Source: Porticoccaceae bacterium (GTDB taxonomy: Bacteria; Pseudomonadota; Gammaproteobacteria; Pseudomonadales; Porticoccaceae). Taken from it: 64,000 nt of DNA. Shown here in pieces: positions 32,952-40,867 of the stretch (positions within the stretch are counted from its first letter, which is position 1; every line of letters starts with the position of its first letter). The stretch is taken from contig JAWKZV010000001.1 in assembly GCA_041395745.1 (NCBI GenBank), forward strand, positions 305,127-369,126. Reading direction: 5' to 3'. The notes under the pieces are model-generated. The model made no database searches, was not told the origin of the DNA, and was given only the letters and a program-made list of their open reading frames with translations. The position numbers were made by a program, and so were the translations under genes.

Positions 32952-33671
32952 ATGTCCGCAAGAAATGGAATGAGTTCACTGATACTCGGCCTGGGGATTT
33001 TGCTGGGCCTGGGCATGCTGGGACATCAACTGGCGGACGCAGCCATCCGCTTCAAGGAGTATGAGCGCACGGTCAACGTGAAGGGCCTGTCAGAGCGGGA
33101 ATACCCCGCCGACGTGGTGATCTGGCCGATCCAGTTCGCGGTGGCCAGCAACAACCTGGAGGAACTCTACGGGGCCATCGACCAGGGCGCGGACAAAATT
33201 CGCCAGTTCCTGCTGGCCCAGGGGTTGGGCGAGGACGAAATCACCGTGGCCATAGCGGCCATTACCGACAAATCCGCCCGGGATTTCGATAACGGCGTGC
33301 GCGCCGAATTTCGCTATACCGCCCAGCAAACCGTGACAGTCTATTCCACCCAAGTGGACAAGGTGCGCGGGGTGATGGGTTCCCTTTCCGAACTGGGCAA
33401 GCAGGGCATCGCCCTGACCGGCGGCAATTACCAGGGCCAGCCCCAGTACCTGTTCACCCGCCTCAACGACGTGAAGCCGGACATGATTGAGGAAGCGACC
33501 CGCAAGGCCCGGGAAGTGGCGGAAAAATTTGCCGAGGATTCCCAGAGCCGGCTGGGCAAGATCAAGCGCGCCTCCCAGGGCCAGTTCAGCATCAGCCCGC
33601 GGGATACCAACAATCCCCATCTCATGAATGTCCGGGTGGTGTCCACCGTGGAGTATTACCTAGCGGATTAA
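32952..33671 (+). CDS. SIMPL (DUF541) domain periplasmic protein
   Basis: N-terminal anchor, RTVNVKGLSEREYPAD, KPDMIEEATRKAREVAEKFAEDS...LGKIKRASQGQFSI, VRVVSTVEYYL. ATG 32952 has a GGAG RBS and is preferred over 32868. Confidence 0.9.
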   Translation: MSARNGMSSLILGLGILLGLGMLGHQLADAAIRFKEYERTVNVKGLSEREYPADVVIWPIQFAVASNNLEELYGAIDQGADKIRQFLLAQGLGEDEITVAIAAITDKSARDFDNGVRAEFRYTAQQTVTVYSTQVDKVRGVMGSLSELGKQGIALTGGNYQGQPQYLFTRLNDVKPDMIEEATRKAREVAEKFAEDSQSRLGKIKRASQGQFSISPRDTNNPHLMNVRVVSTVEYYLAD

Positions 33672-33727
33672 GTTTGGCAGATTAAGTCTGACCGACTGAC
33701 TGGTGGCTTAAGTCTGGCGGACTGAAC
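33660..33727. repeat. Degenerate ~14-bp tandem array starting at the SIMPL 3' end
   Basis: CTAGCGGATTAAGT / TTGGCAGATTAAGT / CTGACCGACTGACT / GGTGGCTTAAGT / CTGGCGGACTGAAC. Confidence 0.55.
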
Positions 33728-33735
33728 CGCTGGAA

Positions 33736-35361
33736 TTAACTCGCGGCGCTGGCAACCGGGCCATCCAGCAGCGGGATGGCGCTGAGCAGGCGGCGGGTGT
33801 AGTCGTGGTGGGGCTGGGCGAACAGGGGTTCGGTTTCGCCGGTTTCCACCAGTTTGCCGTGATGCATCACCGCGATGCGGTCCGACATGTAGCGCACCAC
33901 CGACAGATCGTGGGAAATAAACAGCATGGTCAGGTTGTGCTTTTCCACCAGCTGCAAAATCAGCTTGAGAATCTGCGCCTGAATGGTCACATCCAGAGCC
34001 GACACCGGCTCGTCGGCGATCACCAGTTCCGGTTTGGTGGCGATGGCGCGGCCCACGGCAATGCGCTGACGCTGGCCGCCGGAGAATTCGTGGGGGTACT
34101 TGCGAATGGCGGCCCGGGCCAGTCCCACATCGTCCATCAATTCCAGCACCTGCGGGGTGACGGTTTTGCGGGTGGCCAGACCGTGGTAGAGCAGGGGTTC
34201 CGCCAGGGTATCGAACACCGTCATGCGCGGGTTCAGGGAGGCGTAGGGGTCCTGGAAGATCATCTGCATGCGGCGGCGCAGCGGCGTCATCTGTTTGGCG
34301 GATAGTCCGGTCAGGTCGATACCGTCAAACACCACACTGCCACCGGATGTGGGCACCAGTCCCAGAATGGAGCGCCCCAGGGTGGACTTGCCGGAGCCTG
34401 ATTCACCCACCAGGCCGAGAATTTCCCCGCGCTGGATTTCCAGCGATACATCATCCACTGCCCGCACCACTTTGTGTTCCCGCTTCAGGAAACCGCCGCT
34501 GTGGTCTGTGAAGGTAGTGGTGAGGCCGTGAATGCTGAGCAGGGGCTGTTCTTCGATCTGCGCAGGCAGCGGCTTGGCGCCCTTGGGAATGGAAGCAAGC
34601 AGCTTCTTGGTGTAGTCGTGCTGGGTGTGGTGGAAAATGTCGTCCACCGAACCCTGCTCGACGATCTTGCCGTCTTTCATCACTGCCACGGAATCGGCGA
34701 AATCCGCCACCACCGCCAGGTCGTGGCTGATAAAGATCACCGCGATATTACGGCGCTGTTGCAGCTCCCGGATCAGCTTCAGAATCTGCGCCTGAATGGT
34801 CACATCCAGAGCGGTGGTGGGCTCGTCGCAGATCAGCAGTTTTGGCTCGGCGATCAGTGCCATGGCAATCATCACCCGCTGGCGCATACCGCCGGAGAAC
34901 TCGTGGGGATAGCTGTGAATGCGCTTTTCCGGCTCGACGATGCCCACTTCCCGCAGCATTTCCACCGCCCGCTGCAATGCCTGCTGGCGGTTCATGTCGC
35001 GGTGGTAGAGCAGGGGCTCGATCAGCTGTTCTCCCACGGTGAGGTAGGGATTCAGGGAGGTCATCGGGTCCTGGAAAATAATGGCGATATCGTTGCCGCG
35101 CACCTTGCGCAATTGGGCTTCGCTGAGGGTCAGCAGATCGCGACCGTCGAACTGCGCGGTGCCCGATTCGATTTTGCCCGGCGGTTGCGGAATCAGTTTC
35201 AGCAGGCTGTAACAGGCCACCGATTTGCCGGAACCGGACTCGCCGACAATGGCCAGGGTTTCCCCCTGGGCCACGGAAAAACTGACGCCGTCCACGGCCT
35301 TCACCACACCGGCGCGGGTGTGGAAGTGGGTGGTCAGGTCGGTGACAGTTAGTAGTGGCAT
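33736..35361 (-). CDS. Peptide ABC transporter ATPase, fused OppD/OppF type
   Basis: Two GESGSGKS Walker A, two FSGG(M/Q)RQR signatures, DEPTTALD and DEPVSALD. Confidence 0.95.
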
Positions 35362-35396
35362 TTTATTTGCTCTGGCCAGTAATTAAGGTGCTATGG

Positions 35397-35900
35397 TTAT
35401 TTGTTATTAAATTTGATGATGTGATATTCGAAATTATGATCTGTAAAACCACAGTCTTTTCGCATTTCAAGTAGGCACCTAGTGTATCTTTCAACAAGGT
35501 CAGTCTGATTAGTATTTTTCTCTTTAGCCAGAGCGAGGAGATTACTAATTGAGTCAGCGACGTTTGGTGGCGCCCAAAGACAGGTTTCATTGTAGGCTCT
35601 TATGAACTCTGCCTTGTCTTTAATATCTGATTCGTCCAACAGGGCTCTCATAGAGTTAATTAGCCTAACATATACATCTCTTTTTCTAGATAGATGATCT
35701 AAGTTAGATTCCAGTTGTTCTTTTAAATCAGCGCGAGCTTTTTCAATCGTCGACGCGGATGTAATTCTCAGTTCATTTTTATAGTTTTCAACATTTTTTG
35801 ATAACAACACACTGACTATGCTTTTTATTAGCCATGCTGTAGCTGCTAGTAAAATAGATGCCCCACCTAGTAGCTTTATCAGATCTAGCCAAAACTCCAT
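35397..35900 (-). CDS. Hypothetical AT-rich protein (N-terminal TM, coiled coil, helical C-domain)
   Basis: 167-aa ORF with AGGGA RBS, hydrophobic residues ~3-33, heptad-rich middle; strongly AT-rich against its flanks. Confidence 0.75.
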   Translation of the reverse strand: MEFWLDLIKLLGGASILLAATAWLIKSIVSVLLSKNVENYKNELRITSASTIEKARADLKEQLESNLDHLSRKRDVYVRLINSMRALLDESDIKDKAEFIRAYNETCLWAPPNVADSISNLLALAKEKNTNQTDLVERYTRCLLEMRKDCGFTDHNFEYHIIKFNNK

Positions 35901-35991
35901 AACTTGTCCCTAAAATCTGTGTATCACCCAAGCCGCATTTTGCTTTTCTTCAACAATCAATGTGATCTGTAAAAATTGTTGTCATTTGAAC

Positions 35992-36150
35992 TCAATCCTT
36001 CGAAGCCCTTGGGTCCAGCGCATCTCTTAGCTTATCCCCCAGAAAGTTCAGGGCAAACAGGGTGATGGACAGGGTCAGTCCCGGGAACAGCAGCAGCCAG
36101 GGGTATTCCTCAAGTGGCATCACACCGGGAATGCTCAGGGTAATGTAGAC
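35992..36150 (-). pseudogene. Second, internally deleted copy of the oppC 3' end
   Basis: Translates as VYITLSIPGVMPLEEYPWLLLFPGLTLSITLFALNFLGDKLRDALDPRASKD*. Last 39 aa are 38/39 identical to OppC; the first 13 aa match 9/13 to an OppC segment 29 codons further upstream. Confidence 0.9.
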
Positions 36151-36199
36151 GGCTCATGGCGACAAGGACTGCGGGTGATGGCTGCACATCCAGAGAGCC

Positions 36200-36781
36200 C
36201 TACAAGTCGAATACTAGTTCTATCGCCCCGTGGTTGTACTCGATGCCCTGTGCTTTTGTCGGTCCGTGTGCGGCGTCAATGGGTTCAATATTTTCAGGTT
36301 CGGACCAGATTGGTTGTTTGCCGACTGAAACCTCTATCTGCGATGGCCCGCCAGAGAACCTGTGCAGGGTAAATATTTTTTCGAATTCGACCCTGATGTG
36401 GTTTCTGGCATTCGGGTGGACGTACTGATTCAGGGTGGTGGTGTAACGGATATTGGTCGGTGGCTTGCTTTCGAATACTTTTTCGTTGTTCACATACACA
36501 TGAAATCGCTGGTCTATCGGGGCAGTGATGTCGAGCCGGATAAGCGGGAAATACACGCCGTCCTTGCAGTAAGTGTGTTCTGTTCCATCGATCTTGATCC
36601 ATCCTGGATAATCACATTTTGCTTTCCAGGGCTGCACGAAATATAGCAAGCCTGCCGCCAGGACAAACACCAGAGCCGCGCTGGCTATATATTTCGGTTT
36701 GATTTTTTTCATGGCAACAGCGTTGGTGGGTTTGACAGGTTCAGGACTGGTTTTTGGCTCTGGAGACATCATGATTTGCAT
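36200..36781 (-). CDS. Hypothetical single-pass membrane protein with predicted extracytoplasmic beta-rich domain
   Basis: Basic KKIKPK then TM (YIASAALVFVLAAGLLYFV), Cys pair, alternating beta-strand patterns; start uncertain. Confidence 0.6.
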   Translation of the reverse strand: MQIMMSPEPKTSPEPVKPTNAVAMKKIKPKYIASAALVFVLAAGLLYFVQPWKAKCDYPGWIKIDGTEHTYCKDGVYFPLIRLDITAPIDQRFHVYVNNEKVFESKPPTNIRYTTTLNQYVHPNARNHIRVEFEKIFTLHRFSGGPSQIEVSVGKQPIWSEPENIEPIDAAHGPTKAQGIEYNHGAIELVFDL

Positions 36782-37313
36782 GCCGACGATCTGCTGCGCG
36801 CCGGAATTGGGAGGTTGATCCGGAGGAAGGTTTGCGTTCAGCGTCGTGCTCCCGTGATAGATGCAGCTGGCCGATGGTTCAGACGATCGGCGGGTGAAAA
36901 CATTTCAACGTCGCCCTGAATAAGGTCGTTGATTACCGAGCAGGTTTTTCGTTTGTCAATTCGATGCTGGGTGGGTTTGGTTGAGTTTCTTGTGATCTCG
37001 CTGCAAGCGAAAACGATTAATCCGCGTTTCAGTTGCTGTTTGTGATTTTGTGGTGTGAGCGTGCCCGCCTGTTGTGGAATTTTCCACTCTGGAAAGGGGA
37101 GCCTGGGCTCCGGATTTGGCAGTAAATCAGCTATAGAGCTAATTGCAGTTACTTCCAGTGGCGTCAATATGCCCAGCGAGTGTGGGGCCGTTGACTTAGC
37201 TCGTGTCCGGTGGGGATCTGACATGGCCAGTAACGCCATCCACCACCGCAACCCGAAGAAAGAAAAAGGATTTTCGCCAGCCTCTTTACGCGAATCCTTA
37301 AGTCACGATCTAT

Positions 37314-37379
37314 TTGTATAACTTTTGATCAGGCTTTGTCAATTTGCCAAATTGACATGGCTCAAAAAATTACTAAATA
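37314..37379. promoter_or_regulatory. Perfect inverted repeat carrying back-to-back TTGACA hexamers
   Basis: TGTCAATTT-GCC-AAATTGACA at 37337-37357; minus strand TTGACA-N16-TATACA, plus strand TTGACA-N16-TAAATA. Confidence 0.45.
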
Positions 37380-37401
37380 GGCGAATTGTTTAAAGTTCTT
37401 C

Positions 37402-38292
37402 CTAATCTTTTGAGGCTCTTGGGTCCAGCGCATCCCGCAATCCATCCCCCAGGAAGTTCAGGGCAAACAGGGTGATGGACAGGGTCAGCCCCGGGAACAG
37501 CAGCAGCCAGGGGTATTCCTCCATGGTCTCCACCCCGTAGGAAATCAGCAGGCCCCAGGAGCTTTGCGGCGGCTGGATGCCCAGTCCCAGGAAGCTGAGG
37601 AAGGCCTCCAGCAGCATCACGCTGGGGATGGTCAGGGTGGTGTAGACGATCACAGGCCCCAGGGTGTTGGGGATCAGGTGGCGGCGGATAATGGTCCAGC
37701 GGGACAGGCCGAGAGACACTGCGGCCTCGACGAATTCCTGGCGACGCAGGGATTGCACCTGGCCGCGCACGATACGTGCCATGGTGAGCCATTCCACCGC
37801 GCCGATGGCCAGGAACAGCAGCAGGATATTGCGACCGAACACCACCATCAGCAGCACGATAAAGATCATAAAGGGCAGGGCGTAGAGAATATCGACGAGG
37901 CGCATCATCACCGCGTCCACCCGCCCGCCGGCATAACCGGCCACGGTGCCGTAGAGCACGCCGATCAGCAGCGCCACGCCGGTGGCGATAAAGCCCACCG
38001 CCAGGGACACCCGGCTGCCGTACATGATGCGGGTGAGCATGTCGCGGCCAAAGATATCAGTGCCCAGCCAGTGCTCCCAGGACGGCGGTGAGGCGCCCAG
38101 TTGCAGGTTCTGCTGTTCGTAGCCGTAGGGGGCAATCCAGGGTGTCAGCAGGGCGATGGCGCAGAGGAACAGCATCACCCCGAGGCCGAACAGCGCCAGG
38201 TGATTCTTGCGCAGCCGCACCCAGGCGTCCTTCCACAGGGAAGTGCCTTCCTCGGCTTCTTTCAGGTCGGTAATCACGGTCGCGTCGGACAT
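37402..38292 (-). CDS. oppC: Oligopeptide ABC permease OppC
   Basis: SLWKDAWVRLRKN, HWLGTDIFGRD, EAA loop (EFVEAAVSLGLS), LSFLGLG, NFLGDGLRDALDP. ATG 38292 overlaps the oppB TGA. Confidence 0.95.
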   Translation of the reverse strand: MSDATVITDLKEAEEGTSLWKDAWVRLRKNHLALFGLGVMLFLCAIALLTPWIAPYGYEQQNLQLGASPPSWEHWLGTDIFGRDMLTRIMYGSRVSLAVGFIATGVALLIGVLYGTVAGYAGGRVDAVMMRLVDILYALPFMIFIVLLMVVFGRNILLLFLAIGAVEWLTMARIVRGQVQSLRRQEFVEAAVSLGLSRWTIIRRHLIPNTLGPVIVYTTLTIPSVMLLEAFLSFLGLGIQPPQSSWGLLISYGVETMEEYPWLLLFPGLTLSITLFALNFLGDGLRDALDPRASKD

Positions 38293-39227
38293 CAATTGTT
38301 ATCTCGTAACTGATGGCGCAGTTTGGGATTGATCCACACCGCGACGATATCGGAGAGCAGGTTGAATAGCACGATCAGGGCGGCGAAGAACACCGTGGTG
38401 CCGAGAATCATGGTGTAGTCGCGGTTAAAGGCGGCCTGCACGTAGAAGCGGCCGAGGCCGGGAATCTGGAAGATGGTTTCCACCACGAAGGAGCCGCTGA
38501 GCAGACCGGCGAAGGCGGGACCGAGGAACGCCACCACCGGAATCAGACCGCCGCGCAGGCCGTGTTTCAGTACCACCACCCATTCCGGAAGGCCCTTGGC
38601 GCGGGCAGTGCGGATGTAATCCTGGGACATCACCTCGAGCATGCCGCCACGACTGAGGCGGGCTATATAGGCCGCGTAGCCGGTGCCGAGGGTAATGGCG
38701 GGCAGTATCTTGTCGCCGGGCAGGTCGCCCCAGCCGGAGACCGGCAGCCACTCCATCCAGACACCGAAGATCAGTACCAACAGCGGACCCATCAGGAAAG
38801 AGGGCATGCAGATGCCGAGCATGGCGGCGGACATGGGGATGTAATCCTGGGCGGTATTGGGGCGCAGCGCCGCCATCACCCCGGCGCAGACGCCGATGAA
38901 TATCGCCACCAGCATGGCGTAGAAGGCCAGTTCCGCGGTGGTGGGCAGGCCGCCGAGAATTAGCTCGTTAACGGAGCGGCCCGGATAGCGGAACGATGGA
39001 CCGAACTCGCCGTGCACCAGATCGTTGAGGTAGCCGAGGTATTGCTGCCACATGGGCTGGTCCAGGTGGTAGCGGGATTCCAGCGCCTTGAGTACTTCCG
39101 GCGGTACGGCTTTTTCGGCGCTGAACGGACCGCCGGGGGCGATGCGCACCAGGAAGAAAGTGGCGGTAATCACCACCAGCAACACCGGGATGGCCTGCAA
39201 CAGGCGGCTGAGGATAAAGCGTCCCAT
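38292..39227 (-). CDS. oppB: Oligopeptide ABC permease OppB
   Basis: RIAPGGPFSAEK, FGPSFRYPG, DYIRTARAKGL, VETIFQIPGLG, NRDYTMILG. Confidence 0.95.
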   Translation of the reverse strand: MGRFILSRLLQAIPVLLVVITATFFLVRIAPGGPFSAEKAVPPEVLKALESRYHLDQPMWQQYLGYLNDLVHGEFGPSFRYPGRSVNELILGGLPTTAELAFYAMLVAIFIGVCAGVMAALRPNTAQDYIPMSAAMLGICMPSFLMGPLLVLIFGVWMEWLPVSGWGDLPGDKILPAITLGTGYAAYIARLSRGGMLEVMSQDYIRTARAKGLPEWVVVLKHGLRGGLIPVVAFLGPAFAGLLSGSFVVETIFQIPGLGRFYVQAAFNRDYTMILGTTVFFAALIVLFNLLSDIVAVWINPKLRHQLRDNN

Positions 39228-40867
39228 CAGTGAATCACCTTGCCGCTGTAGCTGGGGTCCAGGGAAAGCTCCTTGTAGAGCACGTAATCCAGCAGGTTGG
39301 GCTTGAGGCCCTTGAGGCTGGGGTGCACCAGGGTTTTGCTGGTGTAGATGAAGAGCGGAACGATGGGCATGTCCTCAAGCAGTAGTGCCTCCGCCTCGCG
39401 CATCAGCTTATAGCGCTCTTCGCGATCGGTGGCCTCGGGGGCCAGCTTGAGGATCAGCTCATCGTAGCGGGCATTGGACCAGCCGGTGCGGTTGTTGCCG
39501 CCGTCGGTGAGCCACATATCCAGGAAGGTGTTGGGGTCCACGTAGTCGCCAATCCAGCCGGCCCGGGCGATGGCGTAATCGCCGGTGTCCACGGAGTTGA
39601 GGTAGACCTTCCAGTCCTGGTTGTTGAGCACGATCTTGATTCCCAGTTGTTCGTTCCACATCTGCTGGATGGCCACGGCGATTTTGCGATGACCCTCGGA
39701 GGTGTTGTAGAGCAGCTCGGTGACCGGGAAACCCTTGCCGCCGGGGTAGCCCGCTTCCGCCATCAGTTGCCGCGCCTTTTCCGGATCGTAGCGGAAGCCA
39801 GGCTCGGCGGTATAGCCCAGGGTGTCCGGCGGGGTGATGGTATAGGCGGGCAGTTCATCGCCCTTGGTGACCTGCTTGACGATGGCTTCACTGTCGATGC
39901 TCATGGCCAGGGCCCGACGCACTCTTTTGTCGCTGAGTTGCGGCACCTTGGTGTTGAAGCGGTAGAAGTAATTGCCCAGGTAGGGCTGGGTGTAGAGCAG
40001 CTCCGGGTGTTCCTTGCGGTAGATGGCCACCTTGTCGATGGGAATGCTGGCGGTGCGGTGCAGCTGCCCGGAGCGGAACATGCGCTCTTCGGTGGTGACG
40101 TTTTCAGTGGGGTGGAAATGGATGGCGTTGATGCTCACCTTGTCCGCATCCCAGTAGAGGGGGTTTTTGGTCACCACCACCTGTTTGAACAGCTTCCACT
40201 CGGTGAGATTGTAGGGACCGTTGCCGACGAAATTGCCGGGGCGGGTCCACTGGCTGCCGCGCTCGTCGGGGGCGCCGAATTTCTCGATGGTGGCGCGGTG
40301 CACCGGGAAGAAGCTGTAGTGATCCAGCAGTTGCAGGAAGTAGGGGGTCGGGTTGGCCAGTTCGATATCCAGGGTGTAGTCGTCCACCGCGTGGGCGCCC
40401 ACCTGGTCGAAGTCTTTCAGTTCGCCCTTGTAATAGGCTTCGGCATTTTTCAGGGTGAACAGCATGTAGGCGTACTGGTTGCCCAGGGCCGGTTGCAGCG
40501 CCCGCCACCAGGACCAGGTGAAGTCGTGGGCGGTGACCGGGTCGCCGTTGGACCAGCGGGCGTTGTGGCGCAGGTAAAAGCGGTAGCGCTTGCCGTCCTC
40601 GCTGACCTCCCAGCGCTCGGCGACGCCGGGAATGGGTTCGAGGGTGGCGGGGTCTTTCAGTACTAGCCCTTCCAGCAGGGCGGTGATGATGTGGTGTTCG
40701 GGAATGCCGGTGACGATATGGGGGTCGAGTTCCTGGGGATCAGTGCCGTTGCCGAGATGCAGGACGCCTTCGCGGTTGCCCACAGTGACGTTACTTTCAC
40801 CGCCGCTGCAGGACCACAACAGGCAACAGAGCAGGGCCAGGAGAGTGCATTTCAAAGTGGCAGTCAT
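39227..40867 (-). CDS. oppA: Oligopeptide ABC substrate-binding lipoprotein OppA
   Basis: Lipobox-like LWSC, LDPHIVTG, LLEGLV, PGVAERWEVSEDG, WSNGDPVTAHDF, GNGPY, RAGWIGDY. Confidence 0.93.
   Translation of the reverse strand: MTATLKCTLLALLCCLLWSCSGGESNVTVGNREGVLHLGNGTDPQELDPHIVTGIPEHHIITALLEGLVLKDPATLEPIPGVAERWEVSEDGKRYRFYLRHNARWSNGDPVTAHDFTWSWWRALQPALGNQYAYMLFTLKNAEAYYKGELKDFDQVGAHAVDDYTLDIELANPTPYFLQLLDHYSFFPVHRATIEKFGAPDERGSQWTRPGNFVGNGPYNLTEWKLFKQVVVTKNPLYWDADKVSINAIHFHPTENVTTEERMFRSGQLHRTASIPIDKVAIYRKEHPELLYTQPYLGNYFYRFNTKVPQLSDKRVRRALAMSIDSEAIVKQVTKGDELPAYTITPPDTLGYTAEPGFRYDPEKARQLMAEAGYPGGKGFPVTELLYNTSEGHRKIAVAIQQMWNEQLGIKIVLNNQDWKVYLNSVDTGDYAIARAGWIGDYVDPNTFLDMWLTDGGNNRTGWSNARYDELILKLAPEATDREERYKLMREAEALLLEDMPIVPLFIYTSKTLVHPSLKGLKPNLLDYVLYKELSLDPSYSGKVIH

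Follow-up and report, generated by a model that had tools for sequence, protein, structure and literature searches.

How does an operon for a single ATP-binding cassette (ABC) transporter come to be split by about 2 kb of AT-rich DNA that carries, besides genes of its own, a second 3′ end of the very gene it follows? The question is raised by the opp operon in a 64,000-nucleotide (nt) stretch (hereafter the window, in whose coordinates features are given unless stated otherwise) of contig C1 from a 2.5-Mb genome of a marine Porticoccus (Porticoccaceae; G000 in this work), where oppC is parted from the oppD/F gene. The original prediction for this DNA held that the inserted genes, here termed cargo, may arrive by recombination into oppC that restores the gene, stacking cassettes at a variable hotspot. 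The reading that we favor, with a rough probability of 0.55, is that the slot between oppC and oppD is a hypervariable site for accessory genes in one Porticoccus clade, with no recombinase gene in or near it, and that its contents are turned over by homologous recombination.

All the opp genes, namely oppA (39227–40867), oppB (38292–39227, overlapping oppC in this genome), oppC (37402–38295) and a fused oppDF (33736–35361), lie on the minus strand, as do the segments of the gap described below. The intact oppC encodes 297 amino acids (aa) with the Pfam domains BPD_transp_1 and OppC_N, and the fused oppD/F ATPase gene, likewise intact, encodes 541 aa with two ABC_tran plus oligo_HPY domains and shows 92–94% identity to its counterparts in relatives of the same clade. 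The gap that separates the two genes (35362–37401) is 2040 nt long and has a G+C content of 36–53%, compared with about 60–65% in the opp genes. Downstream of oppC it holds, in this order, cargo A, a 5′-truncated copy of the oppC 3′ end (oppC′), and cargo B, so that the AT-rich insert with its own oppC 3′ end is laid out as had been predicted.

The copy, oppC′, was delimited by repeat search and alignment to 35992–36175 and consists of a divergent proximal block, an 87-nt deletion, a core (36052–36111), and a distal tail of native type (35992–36051) with a TGA stop codon; it has nothing upstream of about codon 205. Its main match to the intact gene is a direct repeat of 118 nt with 89% identity (35994–36111 and 37404–37521), which is parted by the in-frame 87-nt (29-codon) deletion, noticed already in the original prediction, from an upstream repeat block of 35 nt with 83% identity (36117–36151 and 37614–37648). 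Similarity persists, at a weaker level, for some 20 nt beyond the upstream block, and the repeat reaches 154 nt if lower identity is counted. A recount over the last 39 codons returned exactly the predicted 8 synonymous codon differences and 1 non-synonymous difference (GGA to AAG, G to K), together with the different stop codon, TAG in intact oppC as opposed to TGA in oppC′, and the distal clustering of the changes, with 1 of 60 nt differing in the proximal part vs. 14 of 60 in the distal part (Fisher p = 0.0005). The repeat is therefore a mosaic: the 60-nt core is present with a single mismatch at both junctions (37462–37521 within intact oppC, a likely crossover zone, and 36052–36111), and near-identity along the entire repeat, the pattern of a simple target duplication, was not found. 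The proximal block of oppC′ is at least 17% divergent, with changes that are common to G000 and to the only other locus with such a copy, L048 (see below), in which the indels and internal deletions are not the same and the reading frame of the copy is broken. Taken together, these features mark oppC′ as a decaying pseudogene and not an intact spare end. Neither a third copy of the tail nor a second copy of either cargo was detected in the 2.5-Mb genome, and both repeats align to the single oppC tail of G005, G012, L149 and other relatives.

Comparison of the slot across relatives covered 24 other Porticoccus species representatives together with L048, L149, and L184, making, with that of G000, 28 Porticoccus loci in total, and a wider set of 80 further genome loci and 67 metagenome loci. 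In 17 other Porticoccus species, the two genes are separated by an AT-rich spacer of just 45–75 nt, and in the 60 or so genomes from neighboring families, as well as on most of the more distant metagenome contigs, the spacing is usually 0–25 nt. Large fillings are limited to the clade of G000 and to the outgroup G022, where nine lineages carry nine different contents. These are cargo A, oppC′, and cargo B in G000; cargo A, an oppC′ copy, and a PD-(D/E)XK-like gene in L048; a 160-aa gene that is a distant relative (27% identity) of the PD-(D/E)XK-like gene of L048 in G005; a PD-T4-10_B homologue (PADLOC E = 1e-34) in P. litoralis DSM 25064 (G004), one of the close relatives of G000; a TerC-family gene together with a 5′-terminal remnant of a PD-(D/E)XK-like gene in G012; three unknown genes in L051; a coiled-coil membrane protein in L149; an HNH-motif protein (motif recognized by eye) in L184; and, in G022, 5.1 kb with porin-like, binding-protein-like, and GGDEF-EAL-like genes, as read by eye. 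All cargo genes are carried by the opp strand, with the exception of the GGDEF-EAL gene of G022. In blastn comparisons between the gaps, matches are confined to the oppC and oppD flanks, on the latter side reaching about 14 nt upstream of oppD, except for cargo A and the copy, which are common to G000 and L048; the bodies of the oppC genes differ by 5–10% within the clade and by 17–20% from the outgroup G022. The predicted variability of the site is thus borne out, given that relatives show differing contents in place of one fixed arrangement. The PD-T4-10_B homologue, the weaker PD-(D/E)XK-like matches, and the HNH motif seen by eye suggest that the cargos of the relatives include defense-type genes. 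No strain variants are on record by exact OppC sequence. As a separate observation, Porticoccaceae bacterium KatS3mg124 has a GC-rich oppC–oppD gap of 325 nt (L110 6858–7184) that is unlike the AT-rich Porticoccus fillings.

No second tail was found in the 7 other filled sites, in the 80 genome loci, or in the 67 metagenome loci; the duplication is specific to the G000/L048 lineage and amounts to a single event, and the 7 other fillings lie in the spacer without any duplication. The proposal of stacked cassettes, each with its own oppC tail, is not upheld by this distribution. With regard to mobility genes, the absence of an integrase or transposase, part of the original prediction, was reproduced in that no such family matched the three longest open reading frames (ORFs) on the opp strand of the gap; moreover, no tyrosine recombinase (PF00589) was detected in the window, and no recombinase or transposase was found among those cargo ORFs of the relatives that were searched against Pfam or PADLOC, the ORFs of G022, L149, and L184 having been read by eye.

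The alleles of the oppC 3′ end indicate which of the two tails is native. L048 is a 2.5-kb Logan contig from another run that has intact oppC, cargo A, and oppC′ in the same order as G000, with about 95–99% identity over most of the common part and a lower value in a patch of about 300 nt and in the copy; the gene after oppC′ differs from that of G000. The intact tails of G000 and L048 were aligned with both copies and with the tails of the relatives. The two intact tails represent one common allele that is found nowhere else (...CCA/CCG AGA GCC TCA AAA GAT TAG) and is followed by a downstream spacer of its own. In G000 this atypical and apparently imported allele occupies the last ~60 nt of intact oppC (37402–37461, ending in the TAG stop) and differs by 13–23% from every allele in the clade, almost exclusively at synonymous positions, compared with 5–9% for the gene body. 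The distal tail of the G000 copy differs at 14 of 60 positions from the intact tail of its own genome and is closest to those of L149 (7/60) and L051 (7–8/60), sharing with L149 the Leu/Arg codons CTA AGA, each a two-step synonymous change; the L048 copy is closest to G012 and L184 (5–6/60; 5/60 for G012). The distal codons of the copies are thus those of intact oppC genes in relatives, which bears out the predicted past role of the copy as a functional oppC terminus. Since the copies carry functional alleles of relatives and the intact tail is the outlier, cargo A appears to have come with a foreign tail that displaced the native one. We accordingly interpret oppC′ as the displaced native tail and the present terminus of the gene as an import that accompanied cargo A. 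The predicted arrival of cargo by recombination that restores oppC would hold, then, for cargo A, which came with an oppC 3′ end that kept the gene intact, but it is not general, being confined to one lineage.

The comparison between the two copies is informative with regard to later exchange. Between the copies of G000 and L048 there are 12 differences in the 60 distal positions, and the cargo that comes after one copy is unrelated to that after the other; most of the adjoining cargo A is 95–99% identical in the two. G012 combines the L048-type tail allele with the same spacer segment and with what is left of the beginning of the PD-(D/E)XK-like gene found in L048. On the simplest reading, the distal tail, the spacer segment next to it, and the cargo would move as one block that recombines through the conserved core, be it that of oppC or that of the copy. 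Across the clade, tails diverge by 5–23% (mean about 15%), i.e., at the outgroup level, compared with 5–10% in the gene body; of 14 windows, the one covering the last 60 nt of oppC shows the highest divergence (mean 0.148 vs. about 0.08), and the classes of tail alleles do not track the similarity of the gene bodies in this small sample. Raised diversity and a recombination signature have been reported for core genes that flank integrase-less hotspots (PMC5635113, 2017), and the diversity of the oppC tail could be a signature of the same kind, although, given the short window and the few genomes, the signal is only suggestive.

The non-coding segments that follow oppC and its copy would form part of such an exchanged block. 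Spacer-left 1 (37296–37401), which follows the stop codon of intact oppC, contains a 9-bp hairpin (fold z = −2.4) and was aligned by eye with the post-oppC segments of relatives (MAFFT), its own similarity test being not significant. Spacer-left 2 (35901–35991), which follows the stop of oppC′, resembles its counterparts in G004 (p~0.01) and behind the L048 copy (p~0.04) and terminates in TTTTAGGGAC, 12 nt ahead of the start of cargo B. Both segments carry AACAATT at positions +12 to +18 after the stop, precisely as originally described; a reading of this motif as an att core did not hold up, the motif being part of a weakly conserved post-stop spacer segment of 60–110 nt that is present in all members of the clade. 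On the other side of the slot, the short spacer-right (35362–35396) leads to the start of oppDF, and inspection by eye finds the ~10 nt at its end (GAGNAAAWAAA, the ribosome-binding region) again in other members of the clade. A conserved hairpin in spacer-left was considered and dropped, the folds being inconsistent, with z below −2 in just 2 of 8. The gap has no match to Rfam families, and scans with promoter and terminator consensus sequences yielded nothing above the shuffle expectation. Because the cargo is co-oriented with opp and no strong promoter or terminator is apparent, we infer that it is probably transcribed by read-through within the operon.

With respect to the route of exchange, we infer that relatives swap cargo by double homologous recombination, with the conserved oppC 3′ end and the oppD 5′ end as the two arms. 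If the crossovers fall within these gene ends, each import would bring along the oppC tail of the donor and the first 60–110 nt of its spacer. In an ancestor common to G000 and L048, one of the imports, consisting of a foreign oppC tail, spacer sequence, and cargo A, would have been added to the resident sequence instead of replacing it; this might have occurred through a single (Campbell-type) crossover with a circularized fragment or through an "ends-in" event, in either case with the crossover within the 60-nt core, and the resident tail would have been pushed downstream as a 5′-truncated pseudogene. Such an event should yield host oppC ending in a foreign tail, with cargo A behind it and, further downstream, a proximal piece of foreign oppC fused to the native tail; a crossover between oppC segments that had diverged would be expected to leave the succession of divergent, near-identical, and again divergent repeat segments that is observed. 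Subsequently, the pseudogene could itself have served as the left homology arm in at least one further swap, which would have left G000 with cargo B and a tail of the L149/L051 type, and L048 with the PD-(D/E)XK-like gene and a tail of the G012 type.

Several points weigh against this scenario. A donor genome with a simple oppC–cargo A–oppD arrangement was not found, and cargo A has a single homologue. A near-identical core of 60 nt amid segments that are 17–20% divergent is not expected by chance, and the scenario requires heteroduplex repair or later gene conversion, which are assumed, to account for it. The raised tail diversity rests on one 60-nt window, with the window from −360 to −300 being nearly as divergent, and on the oppD side no clear excess of diversity sets the first 60 nt apart from the remainder of the 5′ region. 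Finally, homologous recombination does not account for how a new gene gets into the slot in the first place.

As for the cargo genes themselves, cargo A (36200–36781) is predicted to encode a membrane-anchored or secreted beta-rich protein, with a non-coding part upstream (36782–37295). The latter includes an ORF of 137 aa (36838–37251) that, compared with its L048 counterpart, has a ratio of non-synonymous to synonymous substitution rates (dN/dS) of 1.34; because of this value of about 1.3, the ORF is probably spurious and non-coding. The ATG at 36712 is the most likely start of the true gene, which would specify 170 aa. Thus, of the extent originally assigned to cargo A (36200–37400), the presence of a gene is retained, but the part covered by the 137-aa ORF is probably not coding. 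A single homologue of the protein, 93% identical, was found among 5.8e9 proteins, and it is the one on L048. Between G000 and L048, the mature part of the protein has 1 change in 144 aa, compared with about 5% nucleotide divergence, which marks cargo A as a real gene under strong constraint; the predicted product combines an N-terminal anchor with a beta-rich domain, in a model of low confidence (predicted local distance difference test, pLDDT, of 57). Upstream of the gene lies the aforementioned patch of about 300 nt (36720–37010), which is unrelated in G000 and L048 and is flanked on both sides by sequence with 95–99% identity, forming a second, nested variable segment.

Cargo B (35397–35900) encodes a 167-aa protein with an N-terminal transmembrane helix followed by a helical domain, again modeled at low confidence as all-helical (pLDDT 65). 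It has only two homologues, with 63–65% identity, both on short marine metagenome contigs. L051 (7638–8051) encodes a 138-aa cargo protein that is built in the same manner, with an N-terminal transmembrane helix and a helical domain that contains a C-x-W motif; it may be a distant relative of cargo B, although the BLASTP similarity is not significant. The three longest opp-strand ORFs of the gap had no Pfam match at threshold, cargo A and cargo B could not be assigned to a family by any significant match, and neither cargo was matched on plasmids.

Among the alternatives, the most probable, even if we consider it rather unlikely, is that the single-gene cargos are integron cassettes that were placed by IntI at a secondary, non-attC site in the AT-rich spacer and later lost their attC sites, with the tail duplication being a separate accident. 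In its fuller form, which we grade equally, the oppC–oppD spacer would be a secondary integron platform embedded in the operon, where IntI entry behind the oppC stop would be followed by expression from a Pc-like opp promoter, by attC loss that locks the gene in, and by spread of oppC tail, spacer-left, and cassette as one unit among strains by homologous recombination. The genome has the required machinery: a complete chromosomal integron (G000:C1:108085–116500; L044 568–7698) comprises an intact intI (G000:C1:108085–109026; a 348-aa frame with 429 bits against TIGR02249, cut-off 265), located about 197 kb from the slot, and at least 8 attC sites with the consensus yTAACAAG...GCGTTAnnn, and the G+C content of its cassettes (39–47%) is similarly low to that of the cargo. 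Furthermore, the insertion of cassettes at genomic attG sites is documented (Loot et al., 10.1101/2022.09.11.507474), and the cargos are nearly all single, co-oriented, and apparently promoterless genes. The sole homologues of cargo B occur in attC-bearing cassette contexts, and in the L035 homologue an attC site (59.6 bits) overlaps the stop codon of the ORF. The G005 cargo belongs to a family of 103 members, in which GTTAGG boxes precede homologues in several contexts, and on TARA contigs about 720 nt, including one ORF, separate a homologue from an attC-bearing Mrr cassette upstream of it. In three independent fillings, namely G000 (cargo B), L048/G012, and G005, TTAGG occurs 5–15 nt before the start of the cargo, a coincidence with a chance of ~1e-4 by hand estimate. 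When the three cargos concerned were assessed for membership in cassette families, the answer was positive for cargo B, partly so for the G005 family, and uninformative for the homologue of cargo A. Given the cassette-context homologues of cargo B and of the G005 cargo, at least some of the cargo probably derives from the integron-cassette pool.

Entry of these genes at the slot by IntI is another matter. A covariance model built from 12 attC sites, mostly from Porticoccus, which recovers 22 attC sites in Porticoccus arrays as well as that of L035, gave no match in the window or at the nine filled sites, either by default or with the filters off, although such a model may miss foreign attC types; a generic scan for R″/R′ hairpins likewise found none at the cargo boundaries, its matches falling only inside coding sequence. 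The distance of 35 nt from cargo B to oppD is too short for any attC. Homology between the flanks of cargo B and the attC of the metagenome cassettes was considered and dropped (shuffle p = 0.17 upstream, no signal downstream), the cargos were not found in the integron arrays that were fetched, and G precedes TTAGG in G005 alone. In addition, the contents of G012 (TerC), G022 (5 kb, with one gene on the opposite strand), and L184 are unlike cassettes. Should the integron interpretation nevertheless be true, the site would be a natural record of cassettes leaving an integron and becoming ordinary chromosomal genes, and it might show how cassettes get fixed outside integrons.

Two observations on the distribution of integron components are worth recording in their own right. 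An intI match above the cut-off is present in G005 and in seven other relatives from the same genus, two of them with an internal stop, in addition to a fragment in G004 and none in G012. On one of the TARA contigs (L196 2365–4483; also L197 and L198), a Mrr_cat restriction gene, behind which there is an attC site (34.7 bits), is followed in the same orientation by an ORF of 138 aa, by a G005-cargo homologue with an attC-like half-site (ending in CTGTTAGGTG) ahead of it, and by a transpeptidase gene. These small genes make up a small attC cluster, and the 8.5 kb fetched contain no integrase gene.

In a second alternative, which we deem unlikely, cargo A would be a small non-autonomous integrative element that uses the 60-nt core in the oppC 3′ end as its att site, relies on an integrase encoded elsewhere, and carries a substitute gene end. 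The direct repeats on either side of the insert indeed have a near-identical core, and their arms are exchanged as in attL and attR (host-left/foreign-right and foreign-left/host-right). The remote integrase that the original prediction had proposed to look for is also available in part, in that the genome encodes, elsewhere, four integrases besides XerC/D and IntI; nothing, however, ties these or the IntI 197 kb away to the site, which has no attC. Moreover, no integrase gene lies in or near the insert, and across the 28 Porticoccus loci there is one insertion event only, so that recurrent use of the core was not observed, the tail duplication being missing at the seven other filled sites. 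The oppC homology on the element side, about 140 nt upstream of the core, far exceeds the need of an att arm, and the genome has no other copy of cargo A or of the repeat.

Under a third alternative, the oppC 3′ end and spacer would have been duplicated locally in tandem, with decay of one copy and a separate insertion of cargo A, and no tail would be foreign. The near-identity of the 60-nt core between the copies and the related AACAATT-bearing spacer segments after both of them are what such a duplication would leave behind. Its other consequences do not match the data: the intact distal tail is 13–23% off every clade allele, mostly at synonymous positions, as against 5–9% for the gene body, divergence along the copy is strongly non-uniform, and the copies hold functional alleles of relatives and not the products of random decay. 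We therefore judge it improbable. The last alternative, an assembly chimera in which the second tail and the cargos were misjoined across a 118-nt repeat that could in principle mislead a short-read assembler, is very unlikely, close to negligible, since the independent Logan assembly L048 reproduces the order of oppC, cargo A, and oppC′ at 91–95% identity, the repeats are just 89% identical, and the fillings of the same site in relatives lie within single contigs of up to 1.7 Mb.

Two further features were noted in the vicinity of the slot. Between oppB and oppC, a closely similar insert (as judged by eye) of ~140 nt is present in two species, G004 (L032 2790–2930) and G013 (L007); it has ATGGCACC direct repeats at its ends and resembles a miniature mobile element, and G000, in which the two genes overlap, lacks it. 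At 33661–33725, between the convergent ends of oppDF and the neighboring gene, a unit of ~25 nt, TGGCAGATTAAGTCTGACCGACTGA, is present in three overlapping copies with 72–100% identity.

Returning to our preferred reading of the slot as an accessory-gene site turned over by homologous recombination, the locus would provide a clean natural example of a conserved gene end acting as a homology arm, through which small accessory genes are swapped without dedicated mobile-element machinery. The abnormal exchange in the G000/L048 lineage would have left a scar, in the form of the displaced tail, that tells the native from the imported allele. Horizontal transfer is usually thought to avoid operons, and the opp slot lies inside one. 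From a practical standpoint, the slot offers a compact place to seek new small defense genes in marine Gammaproteobacteria.

The prophage e14 and phage 21 of Escherichia coli integrate into the 3′ end of a protein-coding gene, icd, and supply a substitute end. The opp locus is similar in that the target gene is kept intact by an element-borne end that differs mainly at synonymous positions, with the displaced native end located downstream; it differs in that the insert of ~1.4 kb has no integrase and repeated use of a site-specific core was not seen. With isolated attC sites (SALIN), integrase-less attC clusters (CALIN), and cassettes inserted at attG sites, the slot shares single, promoterless, co-oriented small genes behind a host promoter, the presence of IntI in the same genome, a family (that of cargo B) that is attC-bearing elsewhere, and a second family, that of the G005 cargo, with members next to boxes of the cassette type and not far from an attC; in contrast to these systems, no attC is present at the nine filled opp sites, and the expected G|TT junction occurs in G005 alone.

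The closest parallels are two other known phenomena. In integrase-less hotspots (PMC5635113), as in the opp slot, genes turn over rapidly between two conserved core genes with no mobility genes present, several of the cargo genes are similar to those of anti-phage defense, and the end of a flanking gene appears diverse and mosaic. The opp slot departs from these hotspots in being located within an operon, where the permease and ATPase genes of a single ABC transporter flank it, in having a cargo that is almost always a single small co-oriented gene, and in that one lineage retains a displaced copy of the flank. The second parallel is insertion with long target duplication (Nobusato et al., 2000; Furuta et al., 2010, PMC2853133), which occurs without mobility genes and in which the repeats often overlap the 3′ end of a gene. 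Here too the insert is a few kb or less and devoid of mobility genes, and the direct repeats are well over 30 bp, both align to a single target, and overlap a gene 3′ end. Unlike the inserts described there, the opp cargo is not a restriction-modification system, and the opp repeats are mosaic, combining 89% overall identity with a core that is almost the same in both and with arms that diverge; because they are not near-identical throughout, the upstream opp repeat is likely to be partly foreign. Thus, as far as the sequences allow us to judge, the locus is best read not as a new mobile element but as a member of both of these known kinds, an integrase-less hotspot and an insertion with long target duplication, set apart by its position within an operon and by the readable mosaic of alleles at the end of oppC.

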